Positions 13,569-21,198 of a stretch of 33,839 bases of DNA are shown piece by piece; positions within the stretch are counted from its first letter, which is position 1; the number at the start of each line of letters is the position of its first letter. The translations under genes were made by a program, and so were the position numbers. Where the stretch lies: assembly GCA_045220525.1 (NCBI GenBank), contig JBGUVV010000195.1:1-33839 (forward strand), written 5' to 3'. The notes beneath the pieces were generated by a model. The model was not told the DNA's origin and did no database searches. It was given only the letters and a program-made list of their open reading frames with translations. This DNA is from Kiritimatiellia bacterium (GTDB lineage: Bacteria; Verrucomicrobiota; Kiritimatiellia; RFP12; UBA1067).

Positions 13569-13751
13569 TTTTATCTCCGAAGTCAAACTAGCCAGCAGCC
13601 CAACACAACACCCGTTGCATAGCATAGTCTGGCAAGTGTTTTAATTGCAGGTAGTATAGCAGATTTCCGTTAGACATGTAAAGGGTGTCAAAGCCACTAG
13701 TTTTGTAATTTCTGACAGGCGCGTCCAGGGCTACCTTATCATCCAATTTTT

Positions 13752-13760
13752 TGATATAAT
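13752..13760 (+). promoter_or_regulatory. Extended -10 promoter candidate (TGATATAAT) for the precursor / radical-SAM operon
   Basis: Read directly. It lies about 38 nt upstream of ATG 13798. The -35 region is poor (tacctt), as is common for extended -10 promoters. Confidence 0.35.
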
Positions 13761-13797
13761 ACGCATCAAGCAAAACCTTGAAAGGACGGCTAAAACA

Positions 13798-19800: not shown

Positions 19801-20597
19801 AAGACCCTGTAAATTCCGAGTTGCTGCGCTATGTCTTTGATGATTCTAGCCCAACTGGGAAATGCCATTTTTGCAACGGACGCGGCATTGCTTTCGTCGT
19901 GCCAGAGAACTTTTTTATCGATAATGACACGCTAACTAAAGGCTGCAAAGCATTTCTTCGAAAGAGCTCTACATTTCTTGAATTCGCCAAGATGACGAAA
20001 CAAAAACTCTCTGTGGATGTTTTCTCATCTGCCACGAAGATTGATAAGGCTATTCGCAGTACCCTTTTCTATGGAGACAAGGATGAAATAGACAAAGATG
20101 AAACCGGACATTATTGGCCTGGTTTGATTAGATTCTTCCTACAAAATCACACGTATTACCCCGATAAAAGCGCGGAGAAGATATTCTCTCAAAAAACCAT
20201 TGAGACTTGTCCAGTATGTTCGGGGAAGCTGTTGTCAGATCGATTCATGCGCTTTTCCAACCTTTCGACTCTATCCTACCAAGACGTTATGTCCCGCCCA
20301 TTTTCTTGGATACAGAAACATCTCCATGCAGAAAGCGATGTGTATTTATGTCGCTTTAGGGATATTATTAACGATGCTATCCAACTTGGCCTAGGGGCGC
20401 ATTCTGCTAGAGAAGAAATTCAGAATCTCACTGAACTAGATTCAGGGTTGACAGTGCTCATTGCAATGAAGCATTTTGGCTTTTCGCAGATCGGATTGGC
20501 ACTTTCTAACGTTGACATTATCCCTTGTTCCATCAAGAAAGCAGTTAACAAAATCCTAGACGAATTAAAACAAACCAATACTGTATTTATTTGTTGA
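16830..20597 (+). CDS. UvrA-like double ABC ATPase (1255 aa) with a non-canonical C-terminal extension of about 385 aa
   Basis: The start is ATG 16830, after AAAGGAG and 1 nt after the MTase stop. The motifs are: N-terminal [38 protein letters not shown]...[19 protein letters not shown] with [28 protein letters not shown]...[20 protein letters not shown] with [15 protein letters not shown] twice. After about residue 870 the protein continues with extra CxxC modules ([16 protein letters not shown]) and no Walker motifs. Confidence 0.85.
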   Translation: [1255 protein letters not shown]

Positions 20598-21198
20598 AAG
20601 TAGATTTATAAATTCTACGCGATAGTTGCAAACATTCTTTCTTCCGCTTGCTCAGGTCGATTAAGTCTTTAAGGGAATAGGCTTTTAACATTGCCTTTCC
20701 GAAATGGTATGCTGCCGCATAGCACTCAGGAACGGCATAAAAGTGTCGTGTAAAATTAAACCATGTAGGAGGATTAAGAGGTGCATTCCTGAATTGTTTG
20801 GCAACCACGCATGCTACAGACTCATATAGCCAAAACAGTTCTCGCGGAGCTATCCTACTGGAAAGATGTTGGAGGACGTGTATGCATTCATGCCTAATCA
20901 TTTTTAGATAATCAGTCCGAGCAACTTTCCCCTTTAGGTCTTGATATGACAAAACATGAACATGCGAATCTGTGTATGCGAAACAATTCCTTATGCCGAA
21001 GTCATTACGCGAGGCCGTTCTTAATTCATTTTTGAAATCGAACTCATTAAGAATCTGGATTGGTATCCGGATCTGAGATGGCAGAACGGGGATGTTGAAC
21101 AAGCGAACATCCTTCATAATCGAGTGAGATAAGAATCTCTTTAGACCATAATCAACGTCGCAATTGATAAACTGAAGAGTGAATACGCTGTTATTCAT
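20587..21198 (-). CDS. Hypothetical HExxH protein (possible zinc metallopeptidase), convergent with the UvrA-like gene
   Basis: I place the start at ATG 21198 (MNNSVFTLQF) after GGAGAG; the track's TTG start is at 21231. The motif is MIRHECIHVLQH. The 3' ends of this gene and the UvrA-like gene overlap by 11 nt. Confidence 0.5.
   Translation of the reverse strand: MNNSVFTLQFINCDVDYGLKRFLSHSIMKDVRLFNIPVLPSQIRIPIQILNEFDFKNELRTASRNDFGIRNCFAYTDSHVHVLSYQDLKGKVARTDYLKMIRHECIHVLQHLSSRIAPRELFWLYESVACVVAKQFRNAPLNPPTWFNFTRHFYAVPECYAAAYHFGKAMLKAYSLKDLIDLSKRKKECLQLSRRIYKSTFNK

Follow-up and report, generated by a model that had tools for sequence, protein, structure and literature searches.

Triceptide pathways (YhhB, XyeB, FxsB, GrrM, AmcB, HtkB, and DynA/DarE) rely on a SPASM-type radical S-adenosylmethionine (SAM) maturase that has no RRE (N-terminal peptide-recognition) domain and works on a core of aromatic-x-X triads; enzymes of this class are known to form His-to-Lys and related links (PMC11499958). 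[quoted passage not shown] UvrA-like genes are markers of the gene clusters of DNA intercalators (PMC10413001, PMC4052310, PMC10192343). The class II UvrAs (UvrA2), among them DrrC, Ecm16, MtrX, and TioU, lack the UvrB-binding domain and zinc module 1, and the insertion domain of Ecm16, a protein that distinguishes drug-bound DNA, sets drug-DNA specificity (PMC10192343). Here, we describe a cassette that joins a peptide-maturation module to a UvrA paralog in a contig of a Kiritimatiellia bacterium (JBGUVV010000195.1; the whole stretch of 33,839 nucleotides [nt] is referred to as the window). The cassette is a member of none of the DrrC/Ecm16, HXS, sulfatase maturase (anSME), methylation-associated defense system (MADS), pyrroloquinoline quinone (PQQ), or mycofactocin groups, and we do not assign it to the triceptides, whose family models all score it below cutoff. 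Taking all comparisons together, it would work most like a triceptide-type pathway for a ribosomally made and post-translationally modified peptide (RiPP) coupled to an Ecm16/DrrC-like DNA guardian, with echoes of HXS. The explanation that we prefer, tentatively and at somewhat less than an even chance, is that a RiPP-type cross-linked aromatic peptide acts on DNA inside the producer, with the UvrA paralog as its ATP-driven partner on the DNA side.

The five plus-strand open reading frames (ORFs) of the original prediction are all present in the ORF list. They are the precursor peptide gene (13798-13977, 59 amino acids [aa]); rSAM1, a radical SAM/SPASM enzyme (14076-15230, 384 aa); rSAM2, a second radical SAM enzyme (15217-16101, 294 aa), overlapping rSAM1 by 14 nt; a class I SAM methyltransferase (16112-16828, 238 aa, with an alternative in-frame ATG start at 16058); and the UvrA-like ATPase (16830-20597, 1,255 aa), which begins 1 nt past the methyltransferase stop codon. 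Searches with hidden Markov models bore out the domain calls, with Radical_SAM (PF04055) matched twice, MTS (PF05175) once, and ABC_tran together with the UvrA DNA-binding domain in the ATPase. A convergent gene on the minus strand (20587-21198, 203 aa) encodes an HExxH protein and overlaps the UvrA-like gene by 11 nt at its 3' end.

This gene set is not a peculiarity of the window. It recurs at 31 to 60% protein identity in Proteus vulgaris, in Roseburia/Lachnospiraceae, in a partial Victivallales locus, and in metagenome lineages (homologous loci are cited by our numbers, L001 onward), and every full-length locus examined has the complete set of five genes (peptide, rSAM1, rSAM2, methyltransferase, and UvrA-like). 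The loci include the five-gene cassette of P. vulgaris, Lachnospiraceae metagenome contigs in which an HExxH homolog is co-directional, a 220-kb contig, relatives at 83% and 31% identity, a version with a third radical SAM enzyme, the Victivallales contig, and L027, where the UvrA-like gene is convergent to a peptide-rSAM-rSAM-methyltransferase operon. By tblastn, the order peptide, rSAM1, rSAM2, methyltransferase, UvrA-like was found to hold in the homologous loci compared and, subsequently, in L029 and L031; in the variant L013 (L013:7750-15665) the UvrA-like gene comes first and is followed by three radical SAM genes. A search anchored on the UvrA-like protein delimited a distinct family of proteins of about 1,250 aa, with full-length matches down to about 31% identity; the nine members that we looked up all lie beside radical SAM genes (9/9), and all show the short upstream ORF except L028, on a truncated contig. 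A metagenome scan anchored on the peptide retrieved six loci, all with the maturase next door (6/6), and both intact loci on contigs reaching far enough have an intact UvrA-like gene; in L017, a deletion has left a remnant of it. Among GTDB species representatives, a scan with patterns for the rSAM2 N terminus only gave at least four loci. Most carriers are Firmicutes and other gut anaerobes, and the cassette is met with in gut and rumen communities of high density.

Recurrence of the gene set across phyla puts the arrangement far above chance, and a linkage that survives both rearrangement and divergence to 31% identity speaks for function rather than adjacency. We thus rejected fortuitous adjacency, given synteny across phyla and linkage independent of gene order; the neighborhood test proposed with the original prediction had hinged on whether the short ORF and the UvrA-like gene are both retained in homologous loci, and they are. 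No model in NCBIfam (release of June 2026) names any cassette protein, and none of the papers that could be searched connects UvrA to a peptide cassette with radical SAM enzymes or contains the core sequence. The central proposal, a RiPP-type cassette coupled to a UvrA-like ATPase, therefore stands, as a recurrent gene set for which we found no description.

A profile search gathered 140 clusters of the peptide family, every one of them annotated as hypothetical. Behind a variable N terminus, the leader has a conserved helix, Y[ST]xEEL..L[RK]xF, and then the junction D[ED]xRSALA; the 12-residue core, CWG[ND][HY]x[DNE][YF]x[HKR]G[YW], follows directly and ends at the stop codon, with [STN] in the position after [YF]. 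This C terminus fits 119 of the 120 family members listed, which accordingly have the aromatic-X-X core of triceptides: an invariant Cys stands ahead of three consecutive triads (WG[ND], [HY]x[DNE], and [YF]x[HKR]), and a terminal aromatic residue closes the core. In the window, the core reads CWGNYDDYNHGY (13939-13974, plus strand). Across eleven loci, differences in the peptide gene fall mostly on third codon positions (581, versus 249 and 189 at the other two), and synonymous codon changes (390) exceed nonsynonymous ones (280), which indicates at the sequence level that the gene is translated and under purifying selection. The layout, leader first and core at the C terminus, is typical of a RiPP precursor. 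Lipoprotein-type processing at ALA|C was considered and dropped, given a hydrophilic leader without a signal peptide.

The elements around the peptide gene also correspond to what had been predicted. An extended -10-like element, TGATATAAT, can be read directly at 13752-13760 on the plus strand, 38 nt 5' of the start codon of the peptide; it is not among the matches of a consensus promoter scan, where no -35 element fits. A stem-loop of 10 bp with a T-rich tail (14019-14041, plus strand) lies between the peptide and rSAM1 genes and is likely an attenuating terminator. On its own, this hairpin is not above chance (8 terminator-like sites in the window versus 7.1 expected); most homologous loci, however, have a hairpin and T-run 3' of the peptide gene (L001, L003, L006, L009, L012, and L017), and the hairpins of different loci are unrelated in sequence to each other.

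Both radical SAM enzymes match PF04055, with E values of 5e-15 and 5e-18. Direct reading of rSAM1 places CX3CX2C at residue 15 and the SPASM-type motif CX2CX5CX3C at residue 333, and the protein aligns end to end with SPASM peptide/protein maturase models of NCBIfam. Its scores, each against the cutoff of the model, are 197.5 bits versus 349.45 for anSME (TIGR03942), 157 versus 445 for YhhB, 156 versus 450 for DynA, 115 versus 370 for FxsB, 113 versus 425 for AmcB, 97 versus 310 for GrrM, and 90 versus 450 for XyeB. Cyclophane-forming families thus prevail among the matches, all of them below cutoff, and the best peptide-maturase models are those of the triceptide families; like the triceptide maturases, rSAM1 has no RRE domain. 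We regard it as a candidate cross-link-forming peptide maturase. There are also differences from triceptides: rSAM1 scores far under every family cutoff, the core has an invariant Cys, and the cassette has further obligate partners in rSAM2, an enzyme of the N-methyltransferase type, and a UvrA paralog. The top curated model is anSME, which shares the SPASM architecture and is also the closest relative in the PDB (4k37, 2e-28, together with ChlB, 9gm3). However, the score is below the TIGR03942 cutoff, no sulfatase lies beside the cassette in any locus with called genes listed (the check that the original prediction had named), and the sulfatase target motif (C/S-x-P-x-R) is absent from the peptide, so that we rejected a sulfatase maturase identity.

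rSAM2 has CX3CX2C at residue 12 and, near its C terminus, a CX2CX5C at residue 265 that corresponds to a truncated auxiliary-cluster motif; its alignment shows invariant cysteines. The top NCBIfam model is HxsC (TIGR03977, 89.6 bits versus a cutoff of 267.9), with weaker matches to viperin, PqqE, and SkfB in NCBIfam and the PDB and to pVip in PADLOC (1e-20). The cassette resembles HXS in having two adjacent radical SAM enzymes with a ribosomal product, and the 51-aa peptide of L013 ends in CSVVSHTNHSNHNNW, with three His-x-Asn triads reminiscent of HxS repeats. Nevertheless, both HxsC and HxsB (TIGR03978, 55 bits versus 370) remain below cutoff, there is no HxsD-like gene, and the 59-aa peptide of the window has no HxS repeats. 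HXS, for its part, has neither a methyltransferase nor a UvrA-like gene and is 99.7% pseudomonadotal, unlike the cassette. Membership in HXS was rejected on the subcutoff HxsB and HxsC scores and the missing HxsA and HxsD.

The methyltransferase matches MTS (9e-14) and has NPPL at residue 117; the alignment shows NPP[LVI] throughout the family, along with the invariant, family-specific motifs CNKFG.AE and TN[SA]W. Its NCBIfam matches are PrmC/TrmN-like and below cutoff. Since MTS enzymes include rRNA and tRNA N-methyltransferases and rSAM2 resembles viperins in both PADLOC and the PDB, one might imagine, as the original prediction did in its second hypothesis, that DNA or RNA is what both radical SAM enzymes and the methyltransferase modify, with the UvrA paralog scanning for sites; the small ORF would then serve as a regulator or antitoxin-like partner and not as a substrate. 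We consider this very unlikely. A nearly invariant 12-residue core with aromatic triads ending exactly at the stop codon and the end-to-end alignment of rSAM1 with peptide/protein maturases disfavor it, HxsC outscores viperin for rSAM2, and NPP[LVI] lacks the aromatic residue that is typical of base-flipping N6-adenine enzymes.

A further way to read the C terminus is as the source of a cofactor. The terminal G[YW] is invariant, as is the C-terminal Tyr of MftA, the mycofactocin precursor; PQQ and mycofactocin as a rule arise by radical SAM/SPASM chemistry on a C-terminal core, and the PqqE and MftC models match rSAM2 weakly. A redox-active or planar aromatic compound of this type excised from the C-terminal Gly-Tyr/Trp and the residues next to it, with the UvrA paralog guarding DNA or being unrelated, is nonetheless highly improbable: the scores are far below cutoff (PqqE, 47.8 bits versus 381; MftC, 39.9 versus 265), no PqqB/C/D, MftB/D/E/F, or cofactor-using dehydrogenase is encoded in any locus with genes listed, and a metabolic cofactor would not be expected to have so patchy and island-borne a distribution. 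Membership in the PQQ or mycofactocin systems was rejected on these scores and on the absence of the accessory genes from all loci.

The UvrA paralog matches ABC_tran and UvrA_DNA-bind (PF17755, the insertion domain) in Pfam and falls short of the equivalog models for UvrA (TIGR00630, 520 bits with a cutoff of 730; NF001503, 504 with a cutoff of 1147). Its alignment to solved UvrA structures covers residues 2-128 and 223-863. Two complete sets of Walker A, signature, Walker B, and H-loop motifs and four conserved CxxC pairs mark it as an ATP-competent protein of the DNA-binding type. The first nucleotide-binding domain (NBD-I) contains the insertion (DNA-binding) domain at about aa 251-376 (17580-17957), and NBD-II spans aa 586-865 by homology to UvrA. 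The CxxC pairs of zinc module 1 (119/122 and 223/226) are kept and flank a novel insert of about 95 residues (aa 129-222), which occupies the canonical position of the UvrB-binding domain without aligning to UvrA. We detected no UvrB-binding domain in the protein (no PF17760 match; hhalign probability of 0.3% against the canonical region), although a structural remnant of it may persist. Canonical UvrA of nucleotide excision repair was rejected on the subcutoff equivalog scores and on the UvrB-binding domain not being found.

The C-terminal 390 residues (aa 866-1255; 19425-20594) form a third, degenerate UvrA-type domain, NBD3, in the predicted model (predicted local distance difference test score [pLDDT] of 87, predicted template modeling score of 0.80). 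Foldseek relates its fold to UvrA, UvrA2, and Ecm16 with E values of 4e-13 to 1e-5; it has no Walker motifs and keeps a CxxC...CxxC pair (1012, 1127) around an inserted segment. Among 1.84 billion cluster representatives, only 39 have NBD3, which is always C-terminal in the full-length proteins (about 1,230 to 1,420 aa). Conservation among homologs is highest in the ATPase cores (mean identity to the window of 55 to 59%) and lowest, at 24 to 38%, in the aa 129-222 insert and in NBD3. The paralog has several features of the DrrC/Ecm16 type that the original prediction had invoked, namely its place inside a predicted biosynthetic cluster, ABC ATPase sites that are both intact, the insertion domain, and the lack of a detectable UvrB-binding domain; Ecm16 (7sh1) is among its sequence and fold matches. 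It is also much longer than those proteins (1,255 aa versus about 750 to 840 aa), which reside in actinomycete nonribosomal peptide synthetase and polyketide synthase clusters, while this cassette is of the RiPP type. Because it keeps zinc module 1, adds NBD3, and has no detectable UvrB-binding domain, the sequence places it with neither canonical UvrA nor class II UvrA, and the assignment to the DrrC/Ecm16 type did not hold up.

The HExxH protein carries HECIH at residue 103, followed by a conserved WLYES. It has no match in Pfam, NCBIfam, or PADLOC and no PDB match with a six-sequence profile; its predicted model (pLDDT of 79.5), however, is related by Foldseek to M9 collagenase peptidase domains (E value of 4e-3, TMq of 0.56 to 0.62) and to PPEP-1. 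The suggestion that it is a peptidase thus has the backing of a fold match to gluzincins. With no signal peptide evident, the gluzincin-like model makes it a candidate cytoplasmic leader peptidase. Homologs adjoin the cassette in L003 to L005, L008, L009, L015 to L017, L020, L029, and L031. The gene is present in the lineage of the window, in Lachnospiraceae/Roseburia lineages, and in the most prevalent lineage, and is a frequent, though not universal, sixth member.

The cassette is horizontally mobile. Two relatives with 95% identity in the flanks (L025 and L026, located through the cluster member of the Na+/H+ exchanger of the window) lack a 21.45-kb island, 3074-24526, that abuts a tRNA-Ser(tga) gene (24538-24625, minus strand). 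Within it, the block at 12000-21500, which holds the cassette and an unrelated 367-aa ORF, has 41 to 46% GC versus 53 to 64% in the flanks, in agreement with the AT-richness noted beforehand, and in most other loci as well the cassette has a lower GC content than the host flanks. The Proteus cassette consists of five genes cleanly inserted between a Toprim/topoisomerase gene and a gene of the exonuclease/endonuclease/phosphatase family. The most prevalent lineage (473 index blocks) has an integrase, transposases, an nSTAND/TPR NTPase, an NYN domain protein, and ParAB as neighbors. PADLOC identified SoFic beside the cassette in L014, an MkoA-like helicase in L028, and a PD-T4-6-like kinase with an HKD-Snf2 protein in L029 and L031. 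On the opposite strand beyond the HExxH gene, L015 (L015:7911-11377) and L016 encode a 387-aa viperin-like radical SAM enzyme and AbiLii/AbiLi (PADLOC score of 192 bits for AbiLi of L015). We found no match to the peptide pattern in IMG/VR and none to rSAM2 among GenBank phages or in PLSDB plasmids. This defense-island context and the HXS precedent go beyond what the original prediction had foreseen.

Considering that the core is conserved, that rSAM1 is similar to maturases over its full length and has a SPASM motif, that the hairpin recurs, and that the HExxH fold is peptidase-like, we infer that the peptide is the substrate of the enzymes, and action of these enzymes on DNA or RNA is disfavored by the core and by the similarity of rSAM1. 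In the proposed mechanism, the 59-aa precursor would be translated in excess, helped by the attenuating hairpin 3' of its gene. The SPASM enzyme rSAM1 would then cross-link the 12-residue core, whose triads fit three-residue cyclophane chemistry (a Cys thioether would be an alternative cross-link), the HxsC-like rSAM2 would modify the core further, and the NPP-motif methyltransferase would N-methylate it. The leader would be cut at the conserved RSALA|C junction, by the HExxH peptidase where it is present. The resulting rigid aromatic product may act on DNA, a target suggested by the association of UvrA-like genes with intercalator clusters and by the maturation of a DNA-binding antiphage effector by HxsB/HxsC. 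The UvrA paralog could then scan DNA and recognize or remove peptide-DNA complexes, as Ecm16 and DrrC protect the producers of intercalators.

Several observations weigh against this explanation. No curated maturase model in NCBIfam passes its cutoff, and the type of cross-link is thus not indicated. The core peptide is roughly neutral rather than cationic, so that any affinity for DNA must come from the modifications. The HExxH gene is missing beside the Proteus and L006 cassettes. Unlike DrrC and Ecm16, the ATPase retains zinc module 1, there with a novel insert, and adds the 390-aa NBD3. Bacteriocin clusters also colocalize with defense genes and mobile elements (PMC12715929), and the island context is therefore no clean discriminator. 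Finally, the UvrA insertion domain and NBD3 have been swapped for divergent alleles between two cassettes that share an identical core and have enzymes 99 to 100% identical. The window and L015 are 98 to 100% identical at the nucleotide level in the peptide core and the three enzyme genes; identity drops to 55 to 75% over 17563-17962, the insertion domain of the UvrA-like gene, and to 53 to 65% from 19963 onward, through the distal part of NBD3 and then the HExxH gene (to 21198). Such a mosaic with fixed product genes is not expected of an immunity protein that is purely matched to its product. As the insertion domain of Ecm16 sets drug-DNA specificity, the corresponding domain here is likely a specificity part, and this single pair of loci is suggestive of diversifying pressure, in which the probable specificity-determining parts of the ATPase were exchanged while the product-determining genes stayed fixed.

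The same mosaic bears on a competing explanation in which the product is a secreted antibiotic or genotoxin that is exported by a transporter encoded elsewhere and hits the DNA of competitors or host cells, the UvrA paralog providing self-resistance. The classic RiPP anatomy of the cassette, its occurrence in dense gut and rumen communities, and the standing of UvrA-like genes as established markers of clusters for DNA-binding products (PMC10413001, PMC4052310, PMC10192343) agree with this possibility. However, as the original prediction had remarked for this locus, the cassette encodes no exporter, and this is true of all loci with genes listed, including the five-gene insertion in Proteus; in addition, the peptidase has no evident signal peptide, the neighbors are frequently defense genes, and the insertion domain and NBD3 vary while the product genes are identical. 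We therefore regard secretion as unlikely, if still a serious contender. The absence of an exporter, the cytoplasmic-looking peptidase, the defense islands, and the mosaic ATPase make us favor intracellular action of the peptide against invading DNA over a secreted antibiotic. A defense role and a role in competition both stand, with the balance tilted toward intracellular conflict.

In a different version of a defense role, the UvrA paralog itself would be the sensor or effector, and the modified peptide would be a cofactor that binds NBD3 or the insert and arms the ATPase against foreign DNA. The family-specific nature of NBD3 and of the aa 129-222 insert, which are the most variable parts of the protein, would fit such a role, as would the exchange of the insertion domain and NBD3 between otherwise identical cassettes, the location in defense islands, and the HXS precedent (PMC13128918) together with HxsC as the best family of rSAM2. 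There is also some similarity to MADS (mad1 to mad8; Maestri et al. 2024, cited in bioRxiv 10.64898/2026.09.23.753747), since PADLOC models match both ATPase domains of the UvrA paralog (mad3, 9e-64; mad8, 3e-30) and, over the SAM core only, the adjacent methyltransferase (mad2, 7e-18). This may be a generic likeness of ABC ATPase and methyltransferase folds: the cassette has no equivalents of mad1 or mad4 to mad7, and MADS has neither radical SAM enzymes nor a precursor peptide. Membership in MADS was rejected, the matches being partial and restricted to mad2, mad3, and mad8. The cassette, moreover, encodes no nuclease or other obvious effector. We know of no defense system that uses a UvrA-type sensor with a peptide ligand, and we consider this arrangement rather improbable.

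Should the peptide and the ATPase jointly target DNA, it is possible, though doubtful, that the cassette represents either a new DNA-directed conflict system, in which the peptide binds or marks DNA inside the cell and the ATPase sorts host from invading DNA or loads the peptide, or the first genotoxic RiPP of gut commensals with UvrA-type immunity. The former would be the first immune mechanism built from a RiPP and a repurposed excision-repair sensor. Neither RiPP cassettes nor UvrA-like resistance genes are new in themselves; we found no description of their obligate pairing or of a UvrA with a third pseudo-ATPase domain. With a product that targets DNA, the DNA-binding natural products, so far almost all of polyketide or nonribosomal origin, would gain a class of ribosomal peptides, and its source would be gut and rumen anaerobes. 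Genotoxic metabolites such as colibactin are medically relevant in the gut. A defense system, on the other hand, would extend the recent HXS finding that radical-SAM-matured peptides can be immune effectors and would recruit an excision-repair sensor to immunity. The cassette lends itself to experiments, with five or six genes, a precisely defined predicted substrate, and a cultivable host, Proteus vulgaris PR00166.

Some loci depart from the common gene content. A third radical SAM gene (353 to 369 aa) lies between the methyltransferase and UvrA-like genes in L014 (3689-4750) and L028 (640-1749). In L013, a 298-aa protein that looks kinase-like by eye stands in for the methyltransferase, and the genes upstream are HSP70-like and of the metallo-beta-lactamase fold. 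L017 (2658-4822) has a decayed cassette in which about 2.4 kb are gone (the C terminus of the methyltransferase and about the first 570 residues of the UvrA-like protein); what remains are the genes for the peptide, rSAM1, rSAM2, and the HExxH protein.

Further products encoded in the island of the window are an ADP-ribosylglycohydrolase, an MreB-like fragment, a DUF4143 protein, two Ser/Thr kinases, and an ECF-type sigma factor, and we saw no integrase among them. The 367-aa ORF (12522-13625, minus strand), which is divergent from the cassette in the low-GC block, has no match in Pfam, NCBIfam, or PADLOC and no tblastn match in 27 homologous loci; an N-terminal ALDTNIL stretch looks PIN-like by eye. 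The two kinase genes (6515-7849 and 22862-24703) are paralogous, with blocks of 70 to 87% nucleotide identity, and the second contains a tandem repeat of about ten 42-nt (14-aa) units (23072-23574) in a coiled-coil-like region. The true start of this second kinase is probably internal, since its longest ORF overlaps the tRNA-Ser gene. Intergenic repeats of 74 nt (3102-3175, 21540-21613, and 22087-22160) and of 62 nt (4528-4589, 6315-6376, and 12062-12123) are scattered over the island, and both families end in AATCTGACA; the low-GC cassette block sits between the copies at 12062 and 21540. These repeats may be promoter or operator elements of the island sigma factor or, alternatively, recombination scars. 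Beside the insertion site of the island there is a second variable spot, where L025 (4956-6586) has an AbiEi/AbiEii pair to the left of an HtrA-like gene and the window (1-1582) has a different sequence.

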